Below are positions 24,118-51,014 of a DNA stretch of 51,014 nt, piece by piece. The stretch lies in NCBI GenBank assembly GCA_036006545.1, contig DASYPO010000224.1, positions 1-51,014 of the forward strand, written 5' to 3'. The stretch comes from Bryobacteraceae bacterium. GTDB lineage: Bacteria; Acidobacteriota; Terriglobia; Bryobacterales; Bryobacteraceae. Every line of letters starts with the position of its first letter. Position 1 is the first letter of the stretch. The translations under genes and the position numbers were made by a program. A model generated the notes under the pieces. It ran no database searches. It worked only from the letters and a program-made list of their open reading frames with translations, and was not told the origin of the DNA.

Positions 24118-24119
24118 GA

Positions 24120-29104: not shown

Positions 29105-29215
29105 CTAAACCGTGATCGCTTCGCCCTCGCGCGCGGCGATGGTGTTGGGGAAGCGCACGCGCGCATCCTCTACGATGTTCATCATCGCGGTGTAGTCATG
29201 ATTAGGATCGTGGTG
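29105..29215 (-). pseudogene. orphan 3' fragment of the MBL-fold hydrolase gene (diverged duplicate of 29992-30102)
   Basis: Manual ungapped alignment gives about 101/111 identical. It encodes ...HHDPNHDYTAMMNIVEDARVRFPNTIAAREGEAITV*, versus FHHDPNHDDTAMMNIVEDARVRFPNTIAAREGEVITV* in the intact gene. Confidence 0.65.
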
Positions 29216-29270
29216 CACCGACTGCCTGTGAGATCGTGAAGATTCGCGCGGTGTGCGACATAATGGTCGC

Positions 29271-30813: not shown

Positions 30814-30835
30814 GAATCGGTTGTTTCACCCTAAC

Positions 30836-34318: not shown

Positions 34319-36184
34319 ATGCAGGTTAACATGGGCACCCATTGGCGACGCTGGGCGATCGTGGCGGCGATTGCGCTGGTCAGCGCCGTGGCCGCGCGTC
34401 TGCTGAGCAGCACGCACTTTTTCACCCAGCTCAACCTGAAAACCTACGACGCGCACTTCGTGTGGCGCGGGGACGAGCGGGTTTCGGACGTCTTCCTGGT
34501 CACCCTTGACGAGAGGGCCAACAACGCCTACCGCGAACCGGGGATTTTCTGGCATCAGCATTACGCCGCCGCCATCAAGGCCGCCGGACTTGGTGGCGCG
34601 AAAGTCGTCGGACTCGATTTGGCGTTCGGCATCTCCGTAGAAGAGTGGGCCAAGGACAACGATCGTCTCCTCGCCGAAGCAGTAACCCTGGCTCCCATGC
34701 CTGTCGTTATCGGCTACGCGTCGCAAATAAATGGCGACCAGGAGCGTTTGAAGGTACCCGTCAACATGATGGCCGCCGCCATGGGCCTCGCAGGATTTAC
34801 GAATCTGACGGTCGATCCGGATGACTTCGTCCGTTCCCAGGAACTGATCGAGTCGGTCTCTCCCGACCCCAAGGCTCCGCCGCCCGAGCGATCACTGGCT
34901 ATGCGGGTCACGGAGAAGTTCCTCGACAAGGAAGCAGTTTTCGAAAACGGGCGACTAACACTGGATGGCAAGCTCATCCCCCTCACCCCGCAGCGCAGTA
35001 TTGCGATCCACTTCGCGGGCGGACCGGACACCTTCCCGCGCATGTCAATCGTCGATTTCATTGCCAAGGGGGACAAGGGCGAGGTCGAGGAGCTACGTAA
35101 ATTGGTCCAAGGCAAGATCGTCTTGATCGGCACTGACATCCGCGGCATCGATACTTTCGGTACGCCGTTTTATACGGCGCTCAAGGGCACCAAGAATCTA
35201 ACCGCTGGAGTCGAGATTCACGCCAACACCATCCACACGCTGCTCGAAGGTAAGTTCCTGCTGCCGGTACAGAACTGGGTGCGCAATCTTGCGCTCATCC
35301 TGGCAACGGTGATTGCCGCGTTCATCTCAGTCCGGTTTTCGGCGGGTCGCGCGGTTGGGCTCCTGATCCTGGTGGCGGCAGCGATCGCTGTAATCACACA
35401 CTGGATGTTCCTGAACGGGAAGATTCTGTCGACGTCGGAAACGCTCGCCGCGCTGGTCTTTTGCCTGGTGGGATCGATCGCGTTCCGCTTCGCGACCGAA
35501 GAGAAACGCCGCCGGCTGTTCAGCAACGCCGTTACGCTGTTCGTCGGCAAGGACGTTGTGAAGGGCCTCGACAGAAGCGAGAAGATCGAGCTGACCGGCA
35601 AGACGCTCGAAGTGACGATCTTGTTTACCGACATTCGCGGCTTCACGGCGTACACCGACAAAATGTGTCAGGATCACGGTCCCGAACTCCTGGTCGAACA
35701 GCTCAACGAATACATGGCGCAGATGGTGGCGATCATCGTGAAGTATCACGGCCATGTGAACAAGTTCATCGGCGACGGGATCCTCGCAGTATTTTCGGAC
35801 GACGACGAGGGTTCAACTCCTGGCGATCATGCGGCACGCGGCGTGCGCTGCGCCTACGAGATGGTCACCGCGCCTAGCCGCTTCTCGACGGGCTCGGGCC
35901 TCCATAGCGGCACCGTGGTGGTAGGCAACATCGGATCCAAGGACAAAATGGAATACACCGTTCTGGGCGACACGGTGAATCTGGCCTCGCGCCTCGAGAG
36001 TCTCAATAAGGAGCGCCACACTAAACTGCTGATGAGCGGCGCGACGCAAGAATTGCTCAACGGCGCGATGGAAACGTCGCTGCTCGGGTCTTTCGAGGTG
36101 CGTGGCAAGAGCCAGCCGGTGAGTTTGTACACCGCGACGTCGCTGCTGCCAGAACCGGTACCGGAGCCGGCGGGCAAGCAGTAG
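34319..36184 (+). CDS. CHASE2 sensor-domain class III adenylate/guanylate cyclase
   Basis: N-terminal TM (WAIVAAIALVSAVAARLL), an extracytoplasmic CHASE2-like domain (YDAHFVWRG...VFLVTLDE...) and 3 TM helices. The cyclase core follows: VTILFTDIRGFT, NKFIGDGILAVF, GNIGS, YTVLGDTVNLASRLES. Start at 34319 or 34331. Confidence 0.9.
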   Translation: MQVNMGTHWRRWAIVAAIALVSAVAARLLSSTHFFTQLNLKTYDAHFVWRGDERVSDVFLVTLDERANNAYREPGIFWHQHYAAAIKAAGLGGAKVVGLDLAFGISVEEWAKDNDRLLAEAVTLAPMPVVIGYASQINGDQERLKVPVNMMAAAMGLAGFTNLTVDPDDFVRSQELIESVSPDPKAPPPERSLAMRVTEKFLDKEAVFENGRLTLDGKLIPLTPQRSIAIHFAGGPDTFPRMSIVDFIAKGDKGEVEELRKLVQGKIVLIGTDIRGIDTFGTPFYTALKGTKNLTAGVEIHANTIHTLLEGKFLLPVQNWVRNLALILATVIAAFISVRFSAGRAVGLLILVAAAIAVITHWMFLNGKILSTSETLAALVFCLVGSIAFRFATEEKRRRLFSNAVTLFVGKDVVKGLDRSEKIELTGKTLEVTILFTDIRGFTAYTDKMCQDHGPELLVEQLNEYMAQMVAIIVKYHGHVNKFIGDGILAVFSDDDEGSTPGDHAARGVRCAYEMVTAPSRFSTGSGLHSGTVVVGNIGSKDKMEYTVLGDTVNLASRLESLNKERHTKLLMSGATQELLNGAMETSLLGSFEVRGKSQPVSLYTATSLLPEPVPEPAGKQ

Positions 36185-36591
36185 ACACTTCCCCACTGAT
36201 CTTGCTGGATTCGAGAGGTCGTCGTCTGCGCGGCGGCCGAGCACAGCGAAGCAGGTGTTATTTGCGCTTTTTGCTTCGCGGTGGCCGGGAGGCCAACCAG
36301 CGGCGCAATAGGTCTTGGGTCTCGCCCCGACTTGTTTCCGGCCGAGAGATCCAGCTTCAACGAGTCACCGCTGACGCGAATTGCCCGCGCCGTTGTGTCG
36401 TGGATCTGCAAAGTGCTCATGCCATGCCCTTAATAACAGCACTGCCTGTGGGGCTGCCAGTCCTGGCGGCGAGGCGACGTCCACGTCGGCTTCCAAAAGC
36501 CAGCTACCAGCCGCCTTGCCGGCAAATTGCCGGCCCCACATTTAATTGCATCCACGTCTCACCAATGCTTTATCATCCAAGAATAGCGGTA

Positions 36592-39414
36592 ATGCGTAAA
36601 CCTTACGTGAGATGTATTTGGGTGACGTTGCTCTCCAGCGTCGCCGCCCTCGCCGATCAACCTGCACAGAAGCAAGAGTCTCTGGGATTGATCCTCAATC
36701 CCGGCGGCGCGAAACTGCTGCGCGAAGGACAGGAAACGCCGCTCGACGCGCGCGCGGGCGACCTGCTTTACGCCGGCGACGGACTGCGCACCACCGCAGG
36801 TCCCGCGAAGTTCATGTTCTGCCCGTCGAAGACGCTGCAGACCCTGACGGCCGCGGGCGAAGTTCGTCTGGACAAAGCCACGCTGAAGGTCAAAACCGGC
36901 AAGCTGTCGGACGAGCCGCTGCCGCGAAGCTGCATTCTTCCGACGACGTTGCGCGTGGCGGTCGCGAGCCAGCAGCACGTCGGAGCGACGCTAACTCGGT
37001 TCGAATTCAAGCTCACCGATCGCAACAAGCTGGACGCCGCTGTCGTCGCCGAACTTACTCCGCTGGATGCGGCCGTCGCGGCCAACGATCCGACTGCGCT
37101 GGTGTCTGCTGCGGCGATCTTCGAGAAGTACAACCTGCTGAACGACGCTGGCTTCATCTACGGCAAGCTGCGCGCGGTTTTCGGCGATGATACCGCCTGG
37201 ATCAACGACAAGCTCTACGTTCTCGCGCAGACCATTCAATCCCAGCAGGCCGCTGCAGCAGCTACCGGACCGCAGGGAGGGCAAACGTTCGCGCTGCTGC
37301 TGGGCGTCTCCAAGTTCAAGAAGCCGGAGCTTAATCTGTTGTTCGCCAATGCCGACGCTACTTCTATGGCGGATCTTCTGCAAACTCCGCGAGGAGGCGG
37401 CGTGCCCAAGGAGAACATTCTGCTCCTGACCGACGAGCACGCCACTACGGGTGCGCTGCGCCTCGGCTTCAACGACTTTTTGAAACGTCGTGCGGGGAAG
37501 AATGACACAGTCATCATCCTCATTGCGGGGCATGGGACGGTGGAAGCGCCGGGGTCGAAAAGCGCATTCATCCTTACACATGATGCCGATCCGCAGGATC
37601 TGAAATCCACCGCTCTGGCGGTGAACGAATTGCAGGAGCTCTTCACGCAGCAACTTGAAAAAGTGGCTCGCGTGGTTATGTTTGTCGACGTATGCAAGGC
37701 TGGTGCCGTGTCTCAAATGTCGACTGCCAATATGGCGAGCACCGTCGAGGCTCTGGGCGGAGCGCCCGGGAAGCTGTTCGGATTTCTGGCCAGCAAGCCG
37801 AACCAGGTGTCCGTCGAGAGCGACCAGTATGGAGGCGGACACGGCGTCTTCAGCTATTTCCTGCTCAAGGGACTCTTGGGCGCGGCGGACGAAAACTCAG
37901 ATGGCGTGGTGGACGCCGGCGAGCTGGTGAGCTATGTCACCGCGCAAGTAACCAAGGCGACCAGCCGCAAACAATCTCCGCGCGAGTTCGGGACCTACGA
38001 CGCGGAAATGCGACTGTCGGACACCAAGAAGCCCGCCGAGATGAAGTTGACGCATTTCCCAATGTTGTGGGATGCACGCAGCGGACAACCCATGTACCTG
38101 GCCAGCACCGCCGAAGGCCCGCCGCCATTGCCACCGCAAGCGACCGAGACACTGGAGCGTTACCGCGCGGCGATCGCCGCCGGACAAATTCTTCCCGATC
38201 AGCGGGGCGGCGCATTCGACTTACTGCGCGATTTCAAGAATCAGCTGGGCACCGACCCGGCGGGTCAGTACATCACCGCCGAAAACGAATTGCGCGTCGC
38301 GCTCGAGGACAAGGCGCAGGAAATTCTGCTGCGCTATCTGACCGGCGACGAGATCCCGCAGTCGCAGTCGGACTTTGCACAGGGTGCGCGCTACATGGAC
38401 GCAGCTCGTACGCTGAACGAAGGATCGCGGTTCCTCGAAGCTCGCCAGGATTTCTTCCGCGGCCGCGCGCTGCTGTTCGACAAAAAGCCGGAGAGCTACA
38501 CCAACGCGGCGAATCTGCTGGAACAAGCCGTGCGCATCGATCCCAACACTGCGTACGGTTTTAACGCACTCGGAATCGCTTACCTGGAGCAGGCCCAGTT
38601 CGACAAAGCACTGCCGGCGTTTCGCGACGCGGCCAAGCGCGCGCAGCATTGGTCGTATCCACTGCATAACGCCGCGCTGGCGTCGGTCGAAACCGGCGAC
38701 TACAAATCGGCGATCAAATATTACCAGCAGGCCATCAAACTGACGCCGCAGTACAGCTATCTGCATTACAACCTGGGGCTGGTTTACCAGCGGCTGAATC
38801 GCAACAAGGATGCGGAGAACGCGTATCGCGAGGCCATGAAGCGCGCCAGCAGTTCGGCCGAGCCTTCGAACGCATTGGGGACGCTGAAGGCCGCGCAGGG
38901 CAAGCGTTCCGAAGCCGAGCAATTTTACAAAGACGCGCTGGCGAAGAATCCCAAGCTGTACAGCGCCCGTCACAACCTGGCGCTGCTCTTAGCTTCCGAC
39001 AAGAATCGACAGCAGGAAGCGATCGACTTGTGGCGCGAGAATCTGCGCCAGTCGCCGGGCTTCACCGCGTCGCAGTTGAGCCTGGCCGAAACGCTGGCTG
39101 CGCGCGGCGACAATGCGGGTGCGATCGAGCAGTACAGGGCCGTCGTGCAGGAGAAGCCCAAGTATGTAGCGGCGCACCTGGCACTGGCGCAGCTGCTGAT
39201 CAAAACGGCGGACACCGAGGGCGCGCTCGCCGAACTTCGCGCAGCTTCCGCGGTCGAGTCGCAAAACTTCGAGATTTTCGAGTTGACCGGCGATCTGGAA
39301 GCCGGCCGCAAGAACACGGCGGAAGCGAAGATCGCTTACGAAAAGGCCGCGCAACTGGCGCCCGATCGTAACGCTAAGAAGCGGGTTGCATCTAAGCTCA
39401 AAGCGCTTCCGTAA
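36592..39414 (+). CDS. secreted FecR-like / caspase-fold (peptidase C14) / TPR-repeat protein
   Basis: Start at MRKPYVRCIWVTLLSSVAALA (signal peptide). The FecR-like stretch is AKLLREGQETPLDARAGDLLYAGDGLRTTAGPAKFMF. The caspase dyad contexts are VIILIAGHG (His) and VVMFVDVCKAG (Cys). The C-terminal third has about 8-10 TPR units (AYGFNALGIAYLEQAQFDKALPAFRDA...). Confidence 0.85.
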   Translation: MRKPYVRCIWVTLLSSVAALADQPAQKQESLGLILNPGGAKLLREGQETPLDARAGDLLYAGDGLRTTAGPAKFMFCPSKTLQTLTAAGEVRLDKATLKVKTGKLSDEPLPRSCILPTTLRVAVASQQHVGATLTRFEFKLTDRNKLDAAVVAELTPLDAAVAANDPTALVSAAAIFEKYNLLNDAGFIYGKLRAVFGDDTAWINDKLYVLAQTIQSQQAAAAATGPQGGQTFALLLGVSKFKKPELNLLFANADATSMADLLQTPRGGGVPKENILLLTDEHATTGALRLGFNDFLKRRAGKNDTVIILIAGHGTVEAPGSKSAFILTHDADPQDLKSTALAVNELQELFTQQLEKVARVVMFVDVCKAGAVSQMSTANMASTVEALGGAPGKLFGFLASKPNQVSVESDQYGGGHGVFSYFLLKGLLGAADENSDGVVDAGELVSYVTAQVTKATSRKQSPREFGTYDAEMRLSDTKKPAEMKLTHFPMLWDARSGQPMYLASTAEGPPPLPPQATETLERYRAAIAAGQILPDQRGGAFDLLRDFKNQLGTDPAGQYITAENELRVALEDKAQEILLRYLTGDEIPQSQSDFAQGARYMDAARTLNEGSRFLEARQDFFRGRALLFDKKPESYTNAANLLEQAVRIDPNTAYGFNALGIAYLEQAQFDKALPAFRDAAKRAQHWSYPLHNAALASVETGDYKSAIKYYQQAIKLTPQYSYLHYNLGLVYQRLNRNKDAENAYREAMKRASSSAEPSNALGTLKAAQGKRSEAEQFYKDALAKNPKLYSARHNLALLLASDKNRQQEAIDLWRENLRQSPGFTASQLSLAETLAARGDNAGAIEQYRAVVQEKPKYVAAHLALAQLLIKTADTEGALAELRAASAVESQNFEIFELTGDLEAGRKNTAEAKIAYEKAAQLAPDRNAKKRVASKLKALP

Positions 39415-39427
39415 GGTTTGAACACAC

Positions 39428-42400
39428 ATGAAAATCGCCAAGAAATACTGCGCGGTGGTGGGGTTTGCCCTGACGCTGGCCGCCACCGCTCCGGCTCAGA
39501 GCATCACGATTTCGCCGCAACCGCCGCTGCCTTTCGGCTCCATCAACAGTAACTATGTCGCCAATTTGACCGCGAGCGGCGGGCAGAGCGGGAACTATGT
39601 GTATAGCCTCGCTGCGGGCCAGCTCCCGCCCGGTCTGCAGCTCTCCAACATCGCTGGCAGTCCGACAACAGCCCGGATCAGCGGTGTTCCGACCGCGGGC
39701 GGAACCTACAATTTCACGATCCGCGCCACCGACAGCTCCATCTCCGGGCAGCAGGCGTATTCGATCGGCGTGATGCAGATTATTACGCCATCGACACTGC
39801 CGGGCGCGGATGCGGGAACGCCCTACTCGCTGCAGTTCCAAGCTTCCGATGCGCCCACGCCATATAACTGGTCGGCGCCCGGCGCGCCTCCCGGATTGAC
39901 GATGACTCCGGGCGGCCTGCTGAGCGGAACACCGCAGCAGACCGGAACCTTCACCTTCAATGTCACCGCAAATGCGATCGGGTTCGCGAGCGCCACCAAG
40001 GCGGTGACTATCACGATCGTGCCGGCGCTCCAAATCGTGACCGGCGTCACACTCGCTCCCACCTATGTGGGAACTCCTTCTACCATTGCCCTAACCGCGA
40101 CCGGCGGAAAGACTCCGTATGTGTGGTCGCTCGCAACGGGACCGTTGCCCGATGGCCTGACGCTCTCTTCGAATGGCCTGCTCAGCGGAACTCCCAAAGT
40201 TTCCAGTCCGTCCGGAACTCCGTTCACCTTCCGAATTCAGGTGAAGGACGCGAATAACGGCATCGATGTCAAGCAGTTCTCCTTGACGGTTTACGACACG
40301 CTGTCGATTGCGACGCCCAATCCGCTGCCTTCGGGCGCACTCGGCCAGCCTTACAGCCTGACGTTTCAGGGGGCGGGCGGACTGCCGCCCTACACCTTCG
40401 GTATCGTTCCGTCAGGTCTTGGCAGCGGTGTGCCTCCAGGGTTGGTGGTGTCCTCCGCGGGTGTGCTGAGTGGAACTCCCGCCGTCGCGAGCTCGTACAG
40501 CTTCATCCTGAAGATCACCGACGCAAACCAGGTGACCGCGCAAACCACCTACAACATCAGCATCACGCAGCTCAACATCACGACTCAGTCTCCGCTGGCG
40601 GCCGCTCAGGTCGGTCGTACCTATACCCAAAGCTTCGCGACTACAGGCGGCACCGCGCCCTACACGTATACGCTCACCGGCGGATCGCTGCCGCCGGGAA
40701 TAAGCCTCAGCCCGGCGGGTGTACTGGGCGGAACGCCGTCCTCGGCAGGAACCTTCAGCTTCACAATTACTTCGACCGACGCACTCCAGCAAACCTTTAC
40801 CAAGCAATTTCAACTGCCGGTAGGCGTCACTGGCTCGGTGCTTCAAGTTGATCCAGGCAGCATCCGCTACAACGCGATCTCCGGCGGCGATTCTCCGCCA
40901 CCGCAATTCCTGGAGATCACCGGCATCAACAACGCGGCGATCAACTTCACCGTCACCGTCGACAACGGATCGGGAGGCGCAGCGCCGCCGTGGATCACGG
41001 TGCTCCCGCTCAAGGGCGTAACGCCGGCGCGGGTGACTGTGATTGTGGACCCGTTAACTCTTGCGGGCGGAACGTCGTATCCGGCGCGCATCCGGATCGG
41101 GGTGCAAGGATCTACCACCGCTCCGCTCGATATTCCGGTCACCAACAGCGTGGTCACGGCCACGCCGGACGTGATCGCTTATCCCACGTATCTGCGCTTT
41201 GAAGCGCGCATCGGAGCGCCAAAAACGAAGGTGCAATCGCTGCGGGTGATCAACCGCGGTGGAGGCGGGCCGCAGAGTTTTCAGATGTCGGTAGTCAACA
41301 ACAGCTCCTGGCTGAGCCTGACCCCCTCGAATGGAACGACCGCGCATAACGCGAATGCGGTGGTGCTGGTCAAAGTCAACACGCAGGGACTGGCGCCCGG
41401 TCTGTATCGTGACGCGATTCACTTCGTCTCGCCGTCGGTCACCTACGACATCCCGGTTTCCGCGTATGTGGCTCCGGCCGGGCCGATCCTCAAGCTCTCC
41501 ACCAACGGACTCCAGTTCCAGGTAAAACAGGGTGCGGGCGGGTCCAACGCACAAACCGTCAAGGTGCTGAACGTTGGGGATCCGAACACGATCATCAATT
41601 TTCGCGCCGACATTCTGCAGGGCAGCAACTGGTTTACGATTTCGCCCAGCTCGGGAGTCGCTTCCCAGTCGTCGCCCGGGATCATCACCGTGGTACCCGG
41701 AACCGGGGCGCAGAATCTTCCCGCGGCAGGCGCTTACGCGCTGGTGCGCATTACCGACACCAGCGGCACCAATTCGCCCCAATATTTGACGGCACTGCTC
41801 GACGTGCTGGATCCGAATACTCCGTCGTCTCCGGATCTTTCGCCGACCAGCCTGGTCTTCCGCGTAGTGCCCGGCGCCGGGACTCAGACACAACAAATGC
41901 TGGTTTACACGAGCGACCTCGGGGCCGCGCCGTACCAGGCGTCGTCCAACTCTTTCGATGGCGGAAGCTGGCTTAGCGTGACTCCCGCTGCCGGAACCAC
42001 GTCCACACGAGCGCCCGGGCGTCTGACCGTGAACGTGAATCCGGCGGGACTTGCCCCCGGCGTGTATCGCGGAGAGCTGGTGTGCGCGATGGCGGGCGGC
42101 GTTCGCGTGGCTACGGTGACGCTCATCGTTGCCAACACGCCTCCCATCAGCGGAGCGTCGCTAGAATCCAACGGGGCCGCGAACAGATCCGCCGCCGGAC
42201 AGAGAAACGAAGATTGCACGCCGTCGCAACTGGTGGTCACCAACCTCAATACCGCCGGCGAGTTTTTCATCAAGGCCGGCTGGCCGGTGTTTCTTCTGGT
42301 CCAGGTACACGACGATTGCAACGGCTCCGTTCAGGGTGCGAACGTGGTCGCAAGTTTCTCGAACGGCGATCTTCCGCTCACTATGTTCCCCGATCCGGAC

Positions 42401-43306
42401 GTGAACCTGTACACCACCGTGTGGCAGCCTGGCAGTGTATCGCCTTCGACCACCGTGGCTTTCTCTGCCAACCTGGGCGATCTTGCGACCGGCGGTGCAG
42501 GCACCGGAAACGCGGCAGTTCCACGCGATGCGGGCGCGAACGTCGTAACTGGCGACGGCTCGGTAACCGGCGCAGTGACCGCCAATCCAAGTCCAGCGCC
42601 ACCGCCTTTCCTGAACGCCTGTGGCACGGTTAACAACACCAACGTGATTCCCTGCGGCGGGCTGGCACCCGGAACCGTGTCGTCGGTGTATGGACAAAAC
42701 CTGGCACCCGCGCCGCCGGTGAATCCGAATTTCCTGCCGCTGCCGACTTCCTTCAACGGAACGCAGGTACTCGTCGGTGGGATCCCCGCGCCGATGTTCT
42801 ACCTGGGTCCCAACCAGATCAATATCCAGGTTCCGACTGAATTAGTGGTCGGCCGCCAGTATCAGGTTCTGGTCACTGCTCCGGGCGGAGTGTCGGCCAC
42901 CGATCCGATTACGATCGTCCCGGCCTCGCCAGGCGTTGCAGCGCTGCCGGACGGTCGCATCAACGCGCAGCACGGCAACGGGCAATCTATCACTGCTCTG
43001 AATCCGGCGCGCCGGGGTGAAACCATCGCGATGTATCTCACCGGCATGGGCGTGACGAATCCACTGGTCGCCACCGGGGCGCAGGCACCCGGAGTCGCGC
43101 CGCTGCCGGTGCTGCAGAACGCTCCCACGGTCACGGTGGACGGGCAAGACGCCCCCATCGCCTTCGCGGGTCTGACGCCAGGCGGGATTGGTTTGTATCA
43201 GATCAACTTCACCGTCCCGGCGGGAACGCGCGTCGGCGAATTGAACGTGGTCGTGACCCAGAACGGCGTCGCATCCAATGTCACCAGATTGAACGTCTCT
43301 CAATGA
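39428..43306 (+). CDS. giant secreted protein, paralog 1: at least 5 He_PIG-type putative Ig repeats + Ig-like modules + Cys-pair module + TIGR03437-like C-terminus
   Basis: Signal peptide ...LAATAPAQS. Repeated LPPGL.L...G.LSGTP..(A)GT(Y/F).F(T/I). motifs. Modules end in W[IL][ST].(T/S)P..G...G.Y. Also EDCTPSQL...VHDDCNG, and the tail AGLTPGGIGLYQINFTVPAG...LNVSQ. Confidence 0.9.
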   Translation: MKIAKKYCAVVGFALTLAATAPAQSITISPQPPLPFGSINSNYVANLTASGGQSGNYVYSLAAGQLPPGLQLSNIAGSPTTARISGVPTAGGTYNFTIRATDSSISGQQAYSIGVMQIITPSTLPGADAGTPYSLQFQASDAPTPYNWSAPGAPPGLTMTPGGLLSGTPQQTGTFTFNVTANAIGFASATKAVTITIVPALQIVTGVTLAPTYVGTPSTIALTATGGKTPYVWSLATGPLPDGLTLSSNGLLSGTPKVSSPSGTPFTFRIQVKDANNGIDVKQFSLTVYDTLSIATPNPLPSGALGQPYSLTFQGAGGLPPYTFGIVPSGLGSGVPPGLVVSSAGVLSGTPAVASSYSFILKITDANQVTAQTTYNISITQLNITTQSPLAAAQVGRTYTQSFATTGGTAPYTYTLTGGSLPPGISLSPAGVLGGTPSSAGTFSFTITSTDALQQTFTKQFQLPVGVTGSVLQVDPGSIRYNAISGGDSPPPQFLEITGINNAAINFTVTVDNGSGGAAPPWITVLPLKGVTPARVTVIVDPLTLAGGTSYPARIRIGVQGSTTAPLDIPVTNSVVTATPDVIAYPTYLRFEARIGAPKTKVQSLRVINRGGGGPQSFQMSVVNNSSWLSLTPSNGTTAHNANAVVLVKVNTQGLAPGLYRDAIHFVSPSVTYDIPVSAYVAPAGPILKLSTNGLQFQVKQGAGGSNAQTVKVLNVGDPNTIINFRADILQGSNWFTISPSSGVASQSSPGIITVVPGTGAQNLPAAGAYALVRITDTSGTNSPQYLTALLDVLDPNTPSSPDLSPTSLVFRVVPGAGTQTQQMLVYTSDLGAAPYQASSNSFDGGSWLSVTPAAGTTSTRAPGRLTVNVNPAGLAPGVYRGELVCAMAGGVRVATVTLIVANTPPISGASLESNGAANRSAAGQRNEDCTPSQLVVTNLNTAGEFFIKAGWPVFLLVQVHDDCNGSVQGANVVASFSNGDLPLTMFPDPDVNLYTTVWQPGSVSPSTTVAFSANLGDLATGGAGTGNAAVPRDAGANVVTGDGSVTGAVTANPSPAPPPFLNACGTVNNTNVIPCGGLAPGTVSSVYGQNLAPAPPVNPNFLPLPTSFNGTQVLVGGIPAPMFYLGPNQINIQVPTELVVGRQYQVLVTAPGGVSATDPITIVPASPGVAALPDGRINAQHGNGQSITALNPARRGETIAMYLTGMGVTNPLVATGAQAPGVAPLPVLQNAPTVTVDGQDAPIAFAGLTPGGIGLYQINFTVPAGTRVGELNVVVTQNGVASNVTRLNVSQ

Positions 43307-46011
43307 AATCCAGAAGTATGAAAAACAGCATTTGGTCCGGAATCGCGGCAAGTTTTCTGCTGCTTACCGCGTCGGCGCAGGCGCAACTTGTAATCTCACC
43401 GTCCACCCTGCCCGACGGTACGACAGGCTTTCCTTACGCCGCCGTACTACAGGTGGATACCGGGAGCGGGGAGGACACCTGGTCGATTTCATCGGGCGCG
43501 CTTCCGCCTGGAATCGATTTCGTCACCCCCGAGAAGACACCCGTAAACGCGCTGTTCGGTATTCCGACCACGCCAGGAACTTACACCTTCACGATCAAGG
43601 TAGTCGACAGCGGCATGGGCAGCGCGGGGACCGCCACGCAGTCGTACACCATCCGGATCACCGGCGGAGCTGCGGTTTCGGTTGCACCTGCGAGTCTCGC
43701 CTTCACCGGCGTCGCGGGCGGCGATGCGACTTCGCCGCAAACCCTAACGGTTGGCGGGGGCGCGGCATTTTTCGTCGGCCTCGATAATGGAAGCGGCGGA
43801 GCGGCCCCGGCCTGGATTTCGGCCTCTCCCGCCGCGGGCATAGCACCCGCGCTGGTTACCGTGACGGCCACACCGGGCACGCTGGCGGCCGGCACCTACA
43901 CGGCGCGCCTTCGAATCATTCCTGCCGCGGGTACGGCGCCGGTCGACGTGCCGGTCACGTTTACGCTCACCGGAGGCACACCCAAGCTCGAAACTGCACC
44001 GGCGTTCCTGCGTTTTTCCGCGCGCGTCTCAGCGCCCGGGATCCAGGAGCAGCAGATCGTCGTGCGCAATAGCGGCGGCGGCGCTCCCATCGCATTCCAA
44101 GCGTCAACCGGGGGGAATGCATTTCTCTCCGTTACGCCCGCATCGGGCCAGTCGACGCCCAACACGCCCGTGATCGTCAAGGTGCGCGTCAATACCTCCG
44201 GACTAAGCGCCGGGAATTACACCGATACCGTGCACATCACTTCGCAGGCAGGCAACTCCGACGTTGCGGTCTCGCTGTTCGTCGCCGACGACGGACCCAT
44301 TCTGCGGTTGTCCGAATCGGGTTTGCATTTTAAGGAACGACAAGGCGCCGGCAACACCAATACGGAATCGGTGCTGGTGCTGAACGTGGGCGATCCGGCC
44401 GCGCGAATCAACTGGAGCGCATCGATTTCGGCCAGCCCGAACTGGATCAGCGTGACGCCTGCCACGGGAGTCGCGACCACGGCGGTGCCGGGCCAGATAA
44501 CTGTTGGGCTCAACGCCTCTGCTTCGCAGTTGGCGCCGGGCGCATACTATGCTCTCGTAACCGTGACGGCGCCCAATACGCAGGATTCGCCGCAGACTTT
44601 TTCGGCAGTGCTCGAAGTCTTGCCGGCCGCCACGCCCGCCGAGCCTGAGTTGGATCCAGGCGGACTGCTCTTCGTAGCTCCTGCCGCGGGAGCGGCGCCT
44701 GCGGCGCAGAAGATCACGATCTTCGACAGCAGCGCGACGCCAGTGAGTTTTCAGGCTTCGGTGTCGACCAAAGACGGCGGGAAATGGCTGACGGTTGCCC
44801 CCGCCACCGGAACGTCGTCGACGGCCGTGCCGGGCGTGCTCAACGTCAGCGTGAATCCGGCGGGACTCAAAGCGGGCGTGTATAGCGGCGAGGTCGACGT
44901 GAACCTGGCCGGCGTGCTGCGGTCGGCTACGATCACGCTGCTGGTGCTGCCGGCGGCGACCGAAGCGCGCAGCGCGACTGGCTGTACGGGCACGCGCACC
45001 GTGATCACACCGGTAGGAATACCCGGCAATTTTTCGCTACCGTCGGCTTGGCCCGAGACTTTGGCCGTGCTCCTCACCGACGATTGCGGAACACCGCTGC
45101 CCGACGGCATCGGATCGGTCGTGGCGCGTTTCGACAACGGCGACAAGCCCATAACGTTGAACGATTTTCAGAAGATCGGCAGCTTTTCGGCGGACTGGAC
45201 GCCGCTGTTCCCGGCTTCGAAAGTAACCATCACCTTCGCGGCTTCGGCGGGCAGTCTGCAGCCGACCACCGCGCAGCTCGGCGGCGGTGTCGACAAGAAT
45301 GCGCTCGCTCCTCCGGTATTATTCGACAACGGCACGGTCAACAATACGAACCCATTTGCGGGCGCGAGCGTCGCCCCGGGAACGGTGGCTTCGATCTACG
45401 GTCAGAATCTCGCAACCGCTACCGTATCCCCCGGCGTCCTGCCGCTTCCCACGCTGTTTAGCGGAACCAGCGTCGTCGTGGGCGGAATTTCCGCGCCGCT
45501 GTATTTCTTGAGCAACGGACAACTCAACGTGCAAATTCCCTCGGAGCTCAAAACCAACCAGCACTACCAAGTCGCGGTTTCGGTGAACAACGCGTTCGCG
45601 GTGCTGCCCGGCGGCATCACGGTAGTAGGCACGGCGCCCGGAGTCTCGGCGTTCCCAGATGGCCGTTTGATCGCGCAGCATGGCGATTTCACGCTGGTCG
45701 ACGCCACACGACCGGCGCGCGCCGGAGAATCGCTGGTCATGTACCTGACCGGCATGGGACCCACGAATCCTCCGGTCAAAACCGGTGATCAATCGCCCAG
45801 CGCTCAGCCCGCCGTGGTGGTCACGCAACCCATCGTTACAATTGGCGGCGATCGTGCCGATGTGTTATTTGCGGGGCTAACGCCCGGAGGCATCGGTCTG
45901 TACCAGATCAATTTCACGATTCCCGCTGGATCACGCGGCGGCGACCTGGATGTGGTGGTTTCGCAAGCCGGAGTTTTGTCCAACGTCACGAAATTATTCG
46001 TGGCTAAGTAA
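43303..46011 (+). CDS. giant secreted protein, paralog 2 (1 He_PIG repeat, same back half)
   Basis: ATGA overlap with paralog 1. Signal peptide ...LLLTASAQAQ. Its module order matches paralog 1: TGCTGTRT...LTDDCGTPL and the tail AGLTPGGIGLYQINFTIPAG. Confidence 0.9.
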   Translation: MKSRSMKNSIWSGIAASFLLLTASAQAQLVISPSTLPDGTTGFPYAAVLQVDTGSGEDTWSISSGALPPGIDFVTPEKTPVNALFGIPTTPGTYTFTIKVVDSGMGSAGTATQSYTIRITGGAAVSVAPASLAFTGVAGGDATSPQTLTVGGGAAFFVGLDNGSGGAAPAWISASPAAGIAPALVTVTATPGTLAAGTYTARLRIIPAAGTAPVDVPVTFTLTGGTPKLETAPAFLRFSARVSAPGIQEQQIVVRNSGGGAPIAFQASTGGNAFLSVTPASGQSTPNTPVIVKVRVNTSGLSAGNYTDTVHITSQAGNSDVAVSLFVADDGPILRLSESGLHFKERQGAGNTNTESVLVLNVGDPAARINWSASISASPNWISVTPATGVATTAVPGQITVGLNASASQLAPGAYYALVTVTAPNTQDSPQTFSAVLEVLPAATPAEPELDPGGLLFVAPAAGAAPAAQKITIFDSSATPVSFQASVSTKDGGKWLTVAPATGTSSTAVPGVLNVSVNPAGLKAGVYSGEVDVNLAGVLRSATITLLVLPAATEARSATGCTGTRTVITPVGIPGNFSLPSAWPETLAVLLTDDCGTPLPDGIGSVVARFDNGDKPITLNDFQKIGSFSADWTPLFPASKVTITFAASAGSLQPTTAQLGGGVDKNALAPPVLFDNGTVNNTNPFAGASVAPGTVASIYGQNLATATVSPGVLPLPTLFSGTSVVVGGISAPLYFLSNGQLNVQIPSELKTNQHYQVAVSVNNAFAVLPGGITVVGTAPGVSAFPDGRLIAQHGDFTLVDATRPARAGESLVMYLTGMGPTNPPVKTGDQSPSAQPAVVVTQPIVTIGGDRADVLFAGLTPGGIGLYQINFTIPAGSRGGDLDVVVSQAGVLSNVTKLFVAK

Positions 46012-46204
46012 AGCTATGTAGCGTCCACCAAGGCGCTAGGCCCGGTGTCGTGGCGGACAGGGTGACGTGGTCGAGAATACGACAAAACTGAAACTGGAAC
46101 AGTAACGTGCGATAATGAGATTTACGCAGTTTTCAAGGTAGTTCCGCTGAAGAAATACGCCGTTAAGTTTTCGTTGTACCAATCCATTGGAAGTATCCCA
46201 ACAA

Positions 46205-48982
46205 ATGAAATTCCCGCAGGCCCTTCTACGCGCGACAGCGCTGTCCATTTTTTTCGCAGCCGCTGGCGCGGCGCAGGCCACGTTTAGCCCCGCGACACTC
46301 CCCAACGGCGCGGTGGGTAGCCTCTACCAACAAGATATTTCGGTGGGACTGAATGCTCCAGTTCACTACGCGATTGCGCAAGGGACGCTGCCGCCCGGAC
46401 TGACCATCACCGATTTCAGCCCGCCTAGCAACACGGGGCAGGTGGGCCGCATCGCGGGAACTCCCACCACCGCCGGAACCTATCCGTTCACGATTCACGC
46501 CTCGGACACCAGCGGTCCCAACGTGTTCAGCCAAACCAAGGACTACACCATTGTCGTCACGGCGGCCAGCGCGAGTCCGCTAACGGTTTCGCCGACGAGC
46601 CTCAAGTTCAGCGGGATCGCGGGAGGGGATGCAACCACGCCGCAGGCTATTTCGGTGACCACACCGACTGCCGGCGAAGTGTACACGCCCATCGTCGACG
46701 ACGGGAACGGCGGCGCGGCGCCGAGCTGGCTACGTCTGAATATCGCCACGGGAACGTTCGTGCGGCGCACTCCGGCCCGGATCGTTGCAGTTGCAGACCC
46801 CGGGGCGTTGAGCGCTGGAACATACTCGGCCCGTATCCGGCTGCTCAATTCGACGGGGAACGCGGTCGCCGTGCCGATCACTTTCGAAGTGAAGACAGGT
46901 ACCCCGCAATTGCAAGTGGCGCCGACGTTTCTACGCTTCGCCTCGCGCATCGTTGCGCCGGGGCTTCTGGAGCAACCTATTGTGGTGTCGAACGCCGGCG
47001 GTGGTGGACCGGTTAATTTTCAAGCGACCATCGTGAACTCCAGTCCCTGGATCACGATCACCCCTGCCTCGGGTCAAACCGCGCCCAACGCTCCGGTGCT
47101 GATACGCGTGCGCGTGAATACCGCCGGCCTCCAAGTGGGCGGGTACAGCGACGTGGTCCGCATCACCTCCAACGCCGGCAGCACGGATGTGCGCGTCAAC
47201 TTACTCGTCCAGCAGGATGGGCCGATTCTCACGCTCGACAAAACCGGCGTGCGCTTCACCATCCGTCAGGGAAATTCCAACGGCGCTGCTCAAACCGTCG
47301 CGGTATACAACACCGGGAGTCCGAACACGACCATTACCTGGACCACCACGCAGCGGTCCTCGTCAAACTTCCTGGCTTTCACTCCGGCGGGGGGAACGGC
47401 GACGCCGACGAATCATGGAACGATCAATCTGACGCTCAATTCGAACGCCCCGACACTGCCGGTGGGAGCGTACTACACGCTGGTAACCGTCAGCGACCCC
47501 AAGGCATTCAATTCCCCGCAGGTTTTCGTTGCGGTGCTGGAGGTAGCCGACGCGGCAGCGACGCCGGCGGCGCCCGAACTCGTCACCTCCGGAGCGAGCT
47601 TCGCGGCGGTAGTAGGGGGCGCGGCGCCGATCGCGCAAGGGATCAGTTTTAGCACCAGCAGCAATGCCGCGATCGGATTCCAAGTGCAAGCTACGACTAA
47701 CGACGGCGCAGCCTGGCTAAGCGCGACGCCCACCAGCGGAACGGTATCCGCCACCAGCCCGGTGTTGCTCGTGATTTCGGTCGACCCGACGAAACTCAGC
47801 CGGGCCGGCGTTTATACCGGAACGGTGGATGTCGCGATCAATGGAATTGTGCGCTCGGTAGCGGTAGGGCTGACGCTGTTGCCGCAAGGCGCCACACTTT
47901 CGACTGAGTTAGACGAAAAGGAAGCAGCCAAGGCTCGCGCGGTCACGGGGTGCACGCCCACACGCGCGGTAATCACGCCCCTCGGCATCCCCGGTGGATT
48001 CTCGATTCCAGCGGCATGGCCGACGACGCTCGCCGCCATGCTCACCGACGATTGCGGGACACCGCTCGCCGGCGGGAATGGCTCGGTCGTCGCCAGCTTC
48101 GATAGCGGAGACGCACCGCTGACGCTCTCCGACTATCAGCAAACGGGTAGTTACGTCGCCACCTGGACGCCGGCGTTTCCGGCGGGGAATATGGCGGTAA
48201 CGCTGCGGGGAGCGAGCGGGTCGCTACAGCCGGCCAGTGCGCAGGTCGCCGGGGGAATTAATGCCAACAAGTTCGCGCCACCGGTACTATTCGATAACGG
48301 CACCGTGAACAATACGAATCCGCTAGCGGGGGCGCTGCTCGCTCCGGGCGCAGTGACTGCGGCGTACGGGCAGAATCTTGCATCGAGCACCGTCTCGCCC
48401 GGCGTAATTCCGCTGCTCGAAACCTTCAACGGTACGACCATTCTGGTCGCGGGCCTGCCGGCGCCGTTCTACTTTTTGAGCGGAGGGCAACTGAATGTGC
48501 AGACACCGGTCGAACTGGCGCCCAACCAACAGGCGTCAGTGGCGGTGCAGGTGAACTCGGCCTACGCAGTGCTGCCAAACGGCGTCCTGCTGATCCCAGC
48601 GGCACCGGGGATCGCCAGTTTCCCCGACACAAAGATCATCGCGCAACACGCCGATTTCACACTGATCACCAGCTCGAGTCCATCCAAAGCGGGCGAATCC
48701 ATCGTAAGTTATGTGAGCGGTATGGGCTCGACCAATCCCAGCTACGCGACCGGGCAGCAAGCTTCGCTCACCGCACTTGCGCCGGCCAAAATCCAGCCCA
48801 CAGTCACGGTGGATGGAGCCAATGCGACCGTACTCTACGCGGGGCTGACACCGGGAGGGATCGGGCTGTATCAGATTAATTTCACAGTGCCTGCTTCTAC
48901 CCGTCCCGGCGATGCCACCGTCGTGATCACGCAGAATGGCATCGTTGCCAATGTGACGAAGCTGCCGGTGGGTGCGCCATAA
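46205..48982 (+). CDS. giant secreted protein, paralog 3
   Basis: ATG at 46205 (MKFPQALLRATALSIFFAAAGAAQA); the tracked ORF begins at an upstream TTG. The architecture is the same: TGCTPTRA...LTDDCGTPL and AGLTPGGIGLYQINFTVPAS. Confidence 0.9.
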   Translation: MKFPQALLRATALSIFFAAAGAAQATFSPATLPNGAVGSLYQQDISVGLNAPVHYAIAQGTLPPGLTITDFSPPSNTGQVGRIAGTPTTAGTYPFTIHASDTSGPNVFSQTKDYTIVVTAASASPLTVSPTSLKFSGIAGGDATTPQAISVTTPTAGEVYTPIVDDGNGGAAPSWLRLNIATGTFVRRTPARIVAVADPGALSAGTYSARIRLLNSTGNAVAVPITFEVKTGTPQLQVAPTFLRFASRIVAPGLLEQPIVVSNAGGGGPVNFQATIVNSSPWITITPASGQTAPNAPVLIRVRVNTAGLQVGGYSDVVRITSNAGSTDVRVNLLVQQDGPILTLDKTGVRFTIRQGNSNGAAQTVAVYNTGSPNTTITWTTTQRSSSNFLAFTPAGGTATPTNHGTINLTLNSNAPTLPVGAYYTLVTVSDPKAFNSPQVFVAVLEVADAAATPAAPELVTSGASFAAVVGGAAPIAQGISFSTSSNAAIGFQVQATTNDGAAWLSATPTSGTVSATSPVLLVISVDPTKLSRAGVYTGTVDVAINGIVRSVAVGLTLLPQGATLSTELDEKEAAKARAVTGCTPTRAVITPLGIPGGFSIPAAWPTTLAAMLTDDCGTPLAGGNGSVVASFDSGDAPLTLSDYQQTGSYVATWTPAFPAGNMAVTLRGASGSLQPASAQVAGGINANKFAPPVLFDNGTVNNTNPLAGALLAPGAVTAAYGQNLASSTVSPGVIPLLETFNGTTILVAGLPAPFYFLSGGQLNVQTPVELAPNQQASVAVQVNSAYAVLPNGVLLIPAAPGIASFPDTKIIAQHADFTLITSSSPSKAGESIVSYVSGMGSTNPSYATGQQASLTALAPAKIQPTVTVDGANATVLYAGLTPGGIGLYQINFTVPASTRPGDATVVITQNGIVANVTKLPVGAP

Positions 48983-48992
48983 TCGAGGGATC

Positions 48993-51014
48993 TTGTTTCG
49001 ACCGACCCGTCCACCTGGCGCCCTTCGGCCCATTTTCCGCCTGACCCTGCTGACAGCGGCTTGGGCGTGCGTTTGCTCGGGACAAATCAATATCCAGCCG
49101 GATACTCTGCCGACGGCCGCGATCGGCGTGCCCTACGGGCAGCTTCTGTCGGGGAGTCCGGCAGGCAACTTCAGCTGGAGCATCACGCAGGGGGCGCTTC
49201 CTCCGGGCTTGAATGGGAATCAGATTTCCTCTGGCGACTTTACTCAGTTCGCCATTTCAGGGACCGCGACCACGCTGGGAAGCTACAACTTCACGGTTCG
49301 TGCGGTTGGCACCACGAGTACTGGACCCCCTCCGGTGGGTCAGCGCCAATATACGATCACGGTAAGCAATGCACTGGCGCTGACCACCACGTCGCCCCTG
49401 CCCGGCGGCACGGTCGCTACAGCCTATTCCACGACTTTCGTTGCGACCGGGGGCACAACACCTTACTCGTTTACTGCATCGGGTGTCCCGTTGGGGCTGT
49501 CACTGAGCACTGCGGGCGTGCTTAGCGGCACACCGACCACCGCAGGGAACTACAACCTCCAGGTTTCGGTGACTGACAAAAACTCCACGATTGTCACCAA
49601 GCCGTATACGCTCAGCATTGCCGCTCCAGTGACACCGGTGGTGATTACCACCACGTCGCCGCTGCCCATCGCCTCCACTGGAAGGTTCTACACGCTTCCG
49701 CTGGCGGCCAGCGGAGGCACCGGGCCGTACACGTTTTCATTTACCGGCACGGTGGCGCCCGGCATCTCGTTCTCCGGCGCGGGAGTGCTCAGTGGAACGC
49801 CCACTACCCCGGGGATCTATAACTTCGTGGTGACCGCCACGGATAGTTTGAGGGCTACAGGATCAAAACCGTTCCAACTGGCCGTAGGCACCGCCGGACA
49901 GTCGCTGCTGCTGCTCACCAACGGCTTGAATTTCACTGCGCCGCAGGGCGGCGATCCGACTTCTCCGCAAACGATCGTGACCCTCTCCGCGACCGGATCC
50001 TCGGTGCCCTTCGTCATAGCCGGTGACGATGGCGCGGGTGGCCCTGTACCGAGCTGGCTAACCGGCAAGCCACTCAAAGGTTCCACGCCGGCACGCGCGC
50101 AATTCATGGCGGATCCCGGCAATCTCCCGGCAGGAACCTACAACGCGCGGCTTCGATTTTTTTCGGGAAACGAGCCCGCCATTGAAGTCCCCCTGCGCTT
50201 CGTGGTCACGCCCAGCGTCCCGAAGCTTCGAGCAATTCCTTCGGTGCTTCGTTATTTCCAGCGATTCTCCCAACCGGGGACGGAGGACCAGTCCATCCTG
50301 GTGCAGAATCCCGGCGGCGGCGGCCCGCTCGACTTCCAGGCCCGGATCATCGGCGCGAGCCCGTGGGCGACGCTGTCGGCGACCTCTGGTCAAACCGCTC
50401 CGGGTCTACCCGCTGTGATCAAGGTACGGGTGAACACGCTTGGTTTAGCGGTAGGCGTGTATCGCGATACGGTACGCATCTCGTCGGTGAGCGGCACCGA
50501 CGACGTGCTGATCACACTCTTCGTCACGCCCGACGGCCCGGTGCTGCGGTTGCCCACCACCGGCGTCGTGATTCCGGTACGGCAGGGACATACGCAGAGC
50601 GCGAAGAGCGTGGTGCGCGTCCTGAATATTGGGAGCCTCGGCTCGCAGGTCAACTATTCAGTCGACGTCGTGAGCAATCCAAGTTTTCTCACCGTGACGC
50701 CCAGCAGTTTTGCGGTGACTCCGTTGAACCCAGCCACGCTGACGCTGACGCTGGCTCCCGGCGCCGACGCGTTGACACCAGGCGCGTATTACGCGTTGGT
50801 GCGCGTCAGCGATCGCGCTGCGCTCAACTCGCCGCAATTACTTTCGGTAGTGTTGGTGGTGCTGGATCCCAACAGCGTTTCTTCGCTGGAGGTCTCGCAA
50901 TCCGGCTTCTTTTTCCTGGCGGGCGTCGCTTTCCCGACGTCGAGTAAACAATTTACCGTTACCTCTTCGAGTGCCGATCGAACACCCTTCAGCGTCGCGG
51001 CCAATACCGACAGC
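48993..51014 (+). CDS. giant secreted protein, paralog 4 (3' partial, runs off the window; not in the ORF track)
   Basis: The hand-translated frame (positions divisible by 3) is open from 48993 (TTG) to the window end: (M)FRPTRPPGALRPIFRLTLLTAAWACVCSGQINIQPDTLP... It has three He_PIG-type repeats (GVLSGTPTTAGNYNLQVSVTD etc.), then the same Ig-like modules (PSWLTGKPLKGSTPARAQFMADPGNLPAGTYNARLRF). Confidence 0.8.
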   Translation, partial: MFRPTRPPGALRPIFRLTLLTAAWACVCSGQINIQPDTLPTAAIGVPYGQLLSGSPAGNFSWSITQGALPPGLNGNQISSGDFTQFAISGTATTLGSYNFTVRAVGTTSTGPPPVGQRQYTITVSNALALTTTSPLPGGTVATAYSTTFVATGGTTPYSFTASGVPLGLSLSTAGVLSGTPTTAGNYNLQVSVTDKNSTIVTKPYTLSIAAPVTPVVITTTSPLPIASTGRFYTLPLAASGGTGPYTFSFTGTVAPGISFSGAGVLSGTPTTPGIYNFVVTATDSLRATGSKPFQLAVGTAGQSLLLLTNGLNFTAPQGGDPTSPQTIVTLSATGSSVPFVIAGDDGAGGPVPSWLTGKPLKGSTPARAQFMADPGNLPAGTYNARLRFFSGNEPAIEVPLRFVVTPSVPKLRAIPSVLRYFQRFSQPGTEDQSILVQNPGGGGPLDFQARIIGASPWATLSATSGQTAPGLPAVIKVRVNTLGLAVGVYRDTVRISSVSGTDDVLITLFVTPDGPVLRLPTTGVVIPVRQGHTQSAKSVVRVLNIGSLGSQVNYSVDVVSNPSFLTVTPSSFAVTPLNPATLTLTLAPGADALTPGAYYALVRVSDRAALNSPQLLSVVLVVLDPNSVSSLEVSQSGFFFLAGVAFPTSSKQFTVTSSSADRTPFSVAANTDS

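Follow-up and report, generated by a model that had tools for sequence, protein, structure and literature searches.

We analyzed a 51,014-nucleotide stretch of a Bryobacteraceae genome (assembly GCA_036006545.1, contig DASYPO010000224.1; hereafter the window), which encodes a CHASE2 adenylate cyclase followed on the same strand by a protein with a signal peptide, a caspase-fold protease domain and TPR repeats. The first-pass annotation of this DNA had described the two genes as the start of a row of six plus-strand genes, in which the second product was taken to be a FecR-caspase-TPR protein and the other four were giant TIGR03437-tailed paralogs that the protease would process or monitor. All six open reading frames (ORFs) were present at the positions it gave (Table 1). 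We propose, at roughly even confidence, that the conserved unit is not this row but an envelope-spanning cyclic AMP (cAMP) signalling module of the Bryobacterales. Two further conserved genes of the module, encoding an outer-membrane barrel and an MBL-fold hydrolase, lie just upstream on the minus strand (29992-34300), outside the region that had been annotated as the system. Pfam and NCBIfam searches supported the calls of CHASE2, cyclase, C14 peptidase, TPR and TIGR03437 paralogs, but not that of FecR.

Gene linkage in the Bryobacterales

We surveyed 80 species-level Bryobacterales loci with 10-kb flanks, which were annotated by tblastn using the window proteins as queries. The denominators vary between counts (76, 75, 64 or 62 loci), and the cyclase was counted in the 76 loci with enough sequence. 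Full-length orthologues of the caspase-TPR protein (~930 residues, 48-62% identical) occurred throughout the order. In 73 of the 76 loci the cyclase gene was the immediate upstream neighbour of the caspase gene and had the same orientation; the gap between the two had a median of 19 nucleotides (75 loci), and some of the pairs overlapped. The census thus bears out the pairing that had been noticed in the window, and it supports the prediction of a functional pairing of the CHASE2 cyclase with the secreted caspase-TPR protein. Convergent bactofilin and ATP-synthase genes followed the caspase gene in about half of the loci, which suggests that the operon normally ends at the caspase gene.

A barrel orthologue was encoded divergently upstream in 50 of 62 loci. 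In others the barrel gene was relocated yet still adjacent: it followed the caspase gene in L055, L076 and L078 and preceded the cyclase gene in L062, in the orientation of these genes throughout.

More distant relatives contained the same components in other arrangements. In a split form (L083, L084 and L093), with 30-39% identity to the window proteins, the caspase-TPR gene lacked the N-terminal domain of its window counterpart (residues 28-140, hereafter the N-domain) and was divergent from the CHASE2 cyclase gene, which was followed by genes for one or two stand-alone N-domain proteins. A metagenome scan for this variant gave five loci only, one of them long. In a fused form, CHASE2, cyclase and N-domain were united in one polypeptide (P0216 of locus L085, P0233 and P0237), and in P0200 the N-domain was joined to TPR repeats and a CHAT domain, which is another caspase-fold protease. 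In all N-domain architectures that were examined in detail, a caspase-fold protease or a CHASE2 cyclase accompanied this domain, as part of the protein itself or encoded by the neighbouring gene. Given that the cyclase, the N-domain and the caspase-TPR protein have been kept through gene fission, fusion and re-ordering, we suggest that they act together, and we regard this as our strongest argument. The split and fused variants also mark the N-domain as the element that is coupled to the CHASE2 cyclase. An N-domain profile gave no match in three plasmid-borne CHASE2-cyclase loci of alphaproteobacteria (one each from Azospirillum, Sphingobium and Sinorhizobium meliloti).

Two minor observations concern these loci. 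One clade carried a second, separate caspase-domain gene after the caspase-TPR gene (L069, 12912-13700; L070, 13041-13802; L073, 12906-13667), whose product is ~50% identical to residues 221-482 of the window protein. Downstream of the P0200 gene (L082, 4816-6165) lay a gene whose secreted product has long runs of collagen-like GxT/GPT triplets.

Domains of the module proteins

Both domains of the cyclase scored above the curated cut-offs: CHASE2 (PF05226) with 116 bits at residues 21-334, and Guanylate_cyc (PF00211) with 74 bits at residues 431-599. One hydrophobic segment before the CHASE2 domain and three after it could be read off the sequence. The closest solved relatives of the catalytic domain were CyaB of Pseudomonas aeruginosa (3r5g) and photoactivated adenylate cyclases. 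When these were aligned, the FTDIRGFT, KFIGDG and YTVLGDTVNLASRLE motifs matched up, which represent the metal-binding Asp and the Lys and Thr substrate residues. The Lys/Thr pair is adenylate-specific in class IIIb cyclases. Therefore, cAMP is the likely product of this enzyme. A second cyclase catalytic domain (39% identical) was found in L034 (15840-16451) and L040 (10464-11090), 3-4 kb downstream of the caspase gene and beside an MBL-fold gene.

The Peptidase_C14 domain of the caspase-TPR protein (PF00656, residues 233-464) scored 43 bits against a cut-off of 21.4. Its H314 (in IAGHG) and C368 (in DVCKAG) were invariant in an alignment of 32 full-length homologues (A1). A single caspase-domain sequence gave no match in a phmmer search against the PDB, so that a family profile was needed for the structural comparison. 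With this profile, the two residues aligned with the catalytic GHG and DSCHSG motifs of the yeast metacaspase Yca1 (PDB 4f6o), and C368 aligned with the residue that is changed to Ala in the C276A structure (4f6p). A displaced His/Cys pair, which the first-pass annotation had named as evidence against its reading, was thus not observed; the two residues are at the C14 positions, and the domain is apparently an active protease with an intact dyad. Within it we also found an EF-hand-like loop of the pattern ADxNxDGxVDxxEL, of which A432, D433, N435, D437, G438, V440, E444 and L445 were invariant in the 32 homologues. The loop gave weak profile matches to the EF-hands of calmodulin and calexcitin; it is a possible Ca2+ site and a hint that the protease may depend on Ca2+.

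The caspase-TPR protein begins with a Sec-type signal peptide, and the homologues in alignment A1 showed a matching hydrophobic N-terminus with A-x-A at its end. Two cysteines of the following N-domain (C77 and C114) were invariant, which together with the signal peptide fits a location outside the cytoplasm. The protein is therefore predicted to be extracytoplasmic or periplasmic.

Next, we considered the identity of the N-domain, which had been labelled FecR-like. FecR (PF04773) was not matched at E-values up to 10 by the first 230 residues of the window protein or by 16 homologous fragments. In hhalign, the probability of a match was 1.5% for the single sequence of E. coli FecR and 0.9% for a family alignment of FecR, which was of low diversity. 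The sole resemblance was one beta-hairpin motif, which aligned with FecR residues 112-149. DUF7354 (PF24045) was matched by all 16 N-domain members, in each case below threshold (best E-value, 3.7e-5). A first AlphaFold run on a shallow alignment of 15 sequences gave a pLDDT of <50 for the N-domain; this was superseded by a run on a diverse 48-sequence alignment, in which the domain was all-beta with nine strands at a pLDDT of 84.7. A Foldseek search of the PDB with this model gave no match at E-values up to 1e-3 (best, 0.21) and no FecR-type structure. The FecR label thus failed in the Pfam scans, in Foldseek and in hhalign. A word-indexed search with the N-terminal fragment returned fragments only, and when 1.84 billion representative proteins were searched with a profile, 252 relatives emerged at E-values up to 1e-3. 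This small number indicates a narrow family. By profile and predicted structure, the N-domain is an undescribed, narrow all-beta domain and is not FecR. In the linker that follows it (36994-37030, plus strand, about residues 135-146), the window protein is ~5 residues shorter than all homologues, reading TLTRFEFKLTDRNKL where its closest relative, P0002, has TRDGPEDYIPLATPRDKL.

The barrel matched OMP_b-brl_4 (369 bits), CarboxypepD_reg (54 bits) and TonB_dep_Rec_b-barrel (32.8 bits; cut-off, 27). Plug was not found in it at E-values up to 0.001, with a weak match in one orthologue, and Pfam detected no STN signalling domain in the window protein. Its start codon is uncertain and falls between ~34170 and 34303.

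The MBL-fold protein matched Lactamase_B_2 of Pfam (76.8 bits). It also aligned over its full length with NF041851, a family of cyclic nucleotide-degrading phosphodiesterases (residues 10-265 against profile positions 3-244 of 253), at a score of 73 bits that is far under the cut-off of 400; the matches to RNase Z were partial only. Judging from this alignment, the MBL-fold enzyme is a candidate cytoplasmic cyclic-nucleotide phosphodiesterase. Its gene had homologues in 21 of the 80 loci, and these stood in at least four different arrangements. In ten loci of a deep clade the homologue immediately followed the caspase gene; in the window, L026 and the P0084 locus it came after the barrel gene; and in another clade it was convergent and downstream of the caspase gene. 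Near the window copy, a 50-codon fragment (29108-29257, minus strand) is 70% identical to the C-terminus of the MBL-fold protein (residues 224-273) and looks like the remnant of a duplicated copy.

Known systems, a possible mechanism and its rivals

It has been reported that every adenylate cyclase identified in the Campylobacterota has CHASE2, and that the cyclase clusters there with a cAMP phosphodiesterase, a FecR-domain protein of the outer membrane and a TPR protein (PMC9239204). The module resembles this cluster in that a phosphodiesterase-like gene and genes for a TPR protein and an outer-membrane protein accompany that of a CHASE2 cyclase. The likeness is one of gene types: cyclase, TPR and barrel genes occur together in most of the loci, and the phosphodiesterase-like gene in 21 of 80. 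However, the TPR protein here adds a caspase domain and the new N-domain, the barrel is TonB-dependent-receptor-like with no FecR domain detected, and the phosphodiesterase candidate is an MBL-fold protein, sub-threshold and present in about a quarter of the loci.

In Sinorhizobium meliloti, the CHASE2 cyclases CyaD1, CyaD2 and CyaK require the outer-membrane barrel NsrA for their response to an external signal, which is a protein, namely ribosomal protein uL2 (PMC7529298, PMC13001267). The cAMP/Clr targets of this species include periplasmic proteins, one with a FecR domain and one with TPR repeats (PMC5498481). An outer-membrane barrel and inner-membrane CHASE2 cyclases would be common to both systems, although a caspase or CHAT protease has not been described in the S. 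meliloti pathway, and no Crp-like regulator was found beside the module (tblastn, one query). A Burkholderia operon, with a related one in P. aeruginosa PAO1, encodes a LysM-FecR protein together with a CHASE2 histidine kinase (PMC5192318). There too a secreted accessory protein is encoded beside a CHASE2 sensor, and the two probably act jointly. The differences are that the output of that operon is a histidine kinase with a response regulator instead of a cyclase, and that its accessory protein combines LysM with a true FecR domain and lacks a protease.

Fusions of caspase and CHASE2 are known from the metacaspase-CHASE2 protein of Trichodesmium (PMC3501461, PMC2853523) and from EACC2 systems (PMC8195603), with the protease on the cytoplasmic side. 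They share with the module the link between a caspase-fold protease and a CHASE2 sensor. In contrast, the caspase of the module is a separate protein with a signal peptide and is predicted to be in the periplasm with the CHASE2 domain. A caspase-fold protease, a CHASE2 cyclase, a barrel and a giant protein are also found together on the Sphingobium plasmid pMSHV, where the order is Crp-family regulator, TPR-CHAT, CHASE2 cyclase, hypothetical protein, ShlB-type barrel and giant protein. The association of CHASE2 with caspase/CHAT or FecR-type neighbours, which the first-pass annotation had given as background, is therefore documented by published work (PMC9239204, PMC5192318, PMC3501461, PMC8195603) and by this plasmid. 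The module would share the general layout of the FecA-FecR-FecI system, in which a periplasmic intermediary links a TonB-dependent barrel in the outer membrane to a transducer in the inner membrane. However, FecR homology was not found, the barrel has CarboxypepD_reg while STN was undetected, and the output would be cAMP and not an ECF sigma factor. Based on these comparisons, the best reading of the module is a new form of the CHASE2-cyclase clusters with outer-membrane and TPR partners. Its novel features, as predicted from the encoded proteins, are the caspase in the secreted partner, the N-domain in place of FecR and the TonB-dependent-receptor-like barrel.

If these proteins work as one module, we infer the following localisation, docking, proteolytic control and direction of signalling. 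The TonB-dependent-receptor-like barrel would lie in the outer membrane, and the adenylate cyclase in the inner membrane with its CHASE2 domain facing the periplasm. Between them, the periplasmic protein would consist of the disulfide-bonded beta N-domain, the caspase-fold protease and the TPR array. The N-domain would dock this protein onto the CHASE2 domain, the TPR array would hold a client protein that is located at the outer membrane or comes from it, and the caspase domain would cut the client or a regulatory partner. Proteolysis or client binding would then alter cAMP synthesis by the cyclase, and in many lineages the cytoplasmic MBL enzyme would remove the nucleotide and so reset the signal. 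The TIGR03437-tailed giants may be facultative clients or neighbours, which were gained in some lineages and reached four copies here.

Several points weigh against this proposal. A Crp-like cAMP receptor gene was not found in the window or in the 80 loci by tblastn with one Crp/Fnr query. The MBL gene is missing within 10 kb in 59 of the 80 loci, and its profile match is far below the curated cut-off. Three loci (L008, L038 and L045) have a caspase-TPR gene with no cyclase upstream; L008 and L045 look like second copies, since they come from the same metagenome-assembled genomes as L044 and L037, which hold the full pair. Shared ancestry within one order could explain much of the synteny, and the downstream ATP-synthase genes are also conserved (31 loci). 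Finally, the N-domain has no solved relative, so that docking onto CHASE2 is read from the linkage and the fusions.

We then considered the giant proteins. The TIGR03437 tails of paralogs 1-3 scored 174.8, 171.8 and 149.7 bits (cut-off, 29.05), and that of paralog 4 would lie beyond the window end. The tails are 50-60% identical to one another (60% between paralogs 2 and 3) and the middle parts 39-49%, from which the paralogs are judged to be old duplicates. The first-pass annotation had tied the caspase to these proteins. As a general partnership this did not hold: a TIGR03437-tailed gene followed the caspase gene on the same strand in one of 64 loci (L026), and the four-paralog array was shared only with L081, a metagenomic relative with 89% identity. 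The adjacency is nevertheless non-random. An iterated profile, which was seeded from the window tails and recognises the divergent NHL-type tail, detected seven ORFs with a TIGR03437 tail (L026, L045, L047, L054, L057 with two, and L058) across the 80 loci, which span 1.51 Mb. The distance to a module gene was at most 1.3 kb for every one of them, and the 762 kb of flank more than 1.5 kb away contained no such ORF. Under uniform placement in the flanks, the chance of this is ~0.24^7, or about 5e-5, for events that are few and partly related and a profile that may favour the module-associated subfamily. The adjacent giants varied in orientation, several being convergent. In L045 a TIGR03437-tailed ORF of 1146 residues took the usual place of the cyclase directly upstream of the caspase gene, and in two loci (L064 and L066) He_PIG giants stood beside the barrel gene. 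In L081, L026 and the P0084 locus, the gene after the caspase gene encoded a protein of the paralog-1 architecture, in the last at a distance of 53 nucleotides. A single gain of the paralog-1-like gene, with the window clade as sister to the L026/P0084 clade, was unsupported by identity ranking and by a neighbour-joining tree, which was weakly resolved. Judging from these distributions, the giants are likely facultative accessories, possibly clients, and not core parts of the module.

One alternative, which sharpens the idea of the first-pass annotation, is that the caspase-TPR protein serves the TIGR03437 giants as a dedicated peptidase for processing or sorting, with the barrel as the outer-membrane partner of the giants and the cyclase reporting or controlling the traffic. 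Caspase-fold peptidases that act on C-terminal signals are known, such as PorU of type IX secretion and the GPI transamidase, and the logic would be similar. The caspase gene is joined to paralogs 1 and 2 by the 13-nucleotide gap and the 4-nucleotide overlap both in the window and in L081. Consistent with this idea, L026 and the P0084 locus, which form a clade apart from that of the window in the neighbour-joining tree, also have a paralog-1-like gene behind the caspase gene, and all seven tailed ORFs adjoin the module. Moreover, the caspase-TPR gene of the split variant L083 overlaps a giant NHL/BACON_2 gene by 4 nucleotides, with a TIGR03437-tailed gene nearby, and the Sphingobium plasmid joins CHAT, CHASE2 cyclase, ShlB-type barrel and giant protein. 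However, about 90% of the species-level loci have no adjoining giant, the one in 64 noted above is the single case downstream on the same strand, orientation is variable with several giants convergent, and the profiles were seeded from the window tails. The adjacency statistics lend this alternative some support. Yet, for the processing of giants to be the general role of the module, most genomes would have to encode the substrates at other sites. We give this alternative a small though appreciable probability.

The two remaining explanations are less likely than either the signalling module or the processing of giants. The linkage could be inherited synteny with no functional tie. The caspase-TPR protein would then have a general role in the periplasm as a protease or scaffold, and the signal sensed by the cyclase would have nothing to do with it. 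All of the loci belong to one order, unrelated housekeeping genes are also syntenic, and three loci have the caspase-TPR gene with no cyclase. Nevertheless, mere synteny seems improbable to us, given that the gaps are tight or overlapping in most loci, that the three components stay together after splitting and re-ordering at 30-39% identity, that cyclase and N-domain fusions exist, and that a domain family as narrow as the N-domain (252 relatives) is paired with a caspase-fold protease or a CHASE2 cyclase in the architectures examined. The components could also form a conflict or programmed-death system of the EACC or TRADD-N type, in which CHASE2 and a cyclic nucleotide would control a caspase effector and the MBL enzyme would be a nucleotide-degrading regulator. 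Among NCBIfam models, the EACC1-associated caspase type indeed matches the caspase domain best (69 bits; cut-off, 140), and caspase-CHASE2 fusions occur in cyanobacteria and EACC2 systems (PMC3501461, PMC8195603). However, the signal peptide and the N-domain cysteines place the caspase, by prediction, outside the cytoplasm, unlike cytoplasmic effectors; the genes occupy a stable chromosomal site beside housekeeping genes across the order and not a variable island; and no NTPase, TIR or other conflict-system component was found nearby, where no scan with PADLOC or DefenseFinder was made. We consider a death system very improbable.

For the signalling module, the comparative support comes from three independent kinds of observation, namely near-universal linkage, fused genes and split genes. 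For CHASE2 sensing, the best-studied case, S. meliloti, suggests protein signals relayed by an outer-membrane barrel. The module suggests that CHASE2 may have a secreted protein, and not a small molecule, as its immediate partner, and in this lineage that protein includes a caspase-fold protease that is apparently active. In a more specific version, which we regard as quite doubtful, a Ca2+-binding periplasmic caspase tethered to CHASE2 by the N-domain would act on TIGR03437 giants or on ligands delivered by the barrel, and proteolysis would be the CHASE2 input that leads to cAMP. If this speculation is true, it would be the first mechanistic answer to what CHASE2 senses, and the TIGR03437 tail would be a protease or sorting handle. 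Bacterial caspases have mostly been discussed as cytoplasmic death or defence factors, and the module adds a predicted periplasmic caspase homologue in widespread soil bacteria. The adjacency described above, in which window-like members adjoin the module far above chance, also gives a first contextual clue for the TIGR03437-tailed family of the Bryobacterales.

Layout of the window

The spacing of the plus-strand genes agreed with the first-pass annotation for the 13-nucleotide gap between the caspase gene and paralog 1, the 4-nucleotide overlap (ATGA) of paralogs 1 and 2, and the gaps of 193 and 10 nucleotides between paralogs 2 and 3 and paralogs 3 and 4. The gap between the cyclase and caspase genes measured 407 nucleotides instead of 408.

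Table 1. Features of the module and of the giant genes in the window. Positions are those of the whole stretch.
Feature	Position	Strand	Remarks
Giant NHL/BACON_2 protein, the fifth with a TIGR03437 tail	6737..11020	-	NHL repeats and BACON_2; ~20 kb from module
MBL-fold hydrolase	29992..30813	-	273 residues, no signal peptide; 26 nucleotides downstream of barrel gene, same strand
TonB-dependent-receptor-like outer-membrane barrel	30836..34303	-	CarboxypepD_reg N-terminus; divergent from cyclase gene
CHASE2 sensor and class III (IIIb-like) adenylate cyclase	34319..36184	+	membrane protein, 621 residues; Pfam
Spacer between cyclase and caspase genes	36185..36591		407 nucleotides, unusually long
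Caspase-TPR protein	36592..39414	+	
Sec-type signal peptide, MRKPYVRCIWVTLLSSVAALA/DQ	36592..36654	+	read off the sequence
N-domain, small, all-beta	36673..37011	+	residues 28-140; nearest Pfam family DUF7354, sub-threshold
Helical-hairpin linker	37036..37263	+	residues 149-224; four predicted helices, pLDDT >90
Peptidase C14 (caspase/metacaspase-fold) domain	37288..37983	+	H314 at 37531-37533, C368 at 37693-37695
EF-hand-like loop, ADENSDGVVDAGEL, within caspase domain	37885..37926	+	residues 432-445; invariance, weak profile matches
C-terminal TPR array, ~300 residues	38491..39411	+	residues 634-940; many TPR families above cut-offs
Paralog 1	39428..43306	+	1292 residues; signal peptide, He_PIG repeats, BACON_2-like region, TIGR03437 tail; Pfam/NCBIfam
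Paralog 2	43303..46011	+	902 residues; BACON_2 and TIGR03437 tail; Pfam/NCBIfam
Paralog 3	46205..48982	+	925 residues; He_PIG, BACON_2, TIGR03437; Pfam/NCBIfam
Paralog 4	48993..51014	+	674 codons to window end; He_PIG, weak BACON_2; TTG start after GAGGGA

Among the other loci, only L040 had a spacer of similar length between the two genes (414 nucleotides). An Rfam scan of 30000-51014 gave no match, and promoter and terminator scans gave background levels only, which leaves the spacer unexplained by them. A minus-strand ORF starts at 36420 (MSTLQIHDTTARAIRVSGDSLKLDLS...) and extends into the 3' end of the cyclase gene; a Pfam scan of it gave no match.

In its N-terminal part, the fifth giant shares 38% identity with the L083 giant whose gene overlaps that of the caspase-TPR protein in this split variant. 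About 1.5 kb past the MBL gene and on the same strand, a small ORF (28093-28464, minus strand) encodes a PilZ domain of the type that binds cyclic di-GMP (32 bits; cut-off, 22.5). Further along the minus strand (22675-26489), a gene for a DUF1501 protein adjoins one for a PSCyt2/PSD1 (DUF1549/DUF1553) protein with a cytochrome c domain, a pairing that is typical of Planctomycetes-type genomes.

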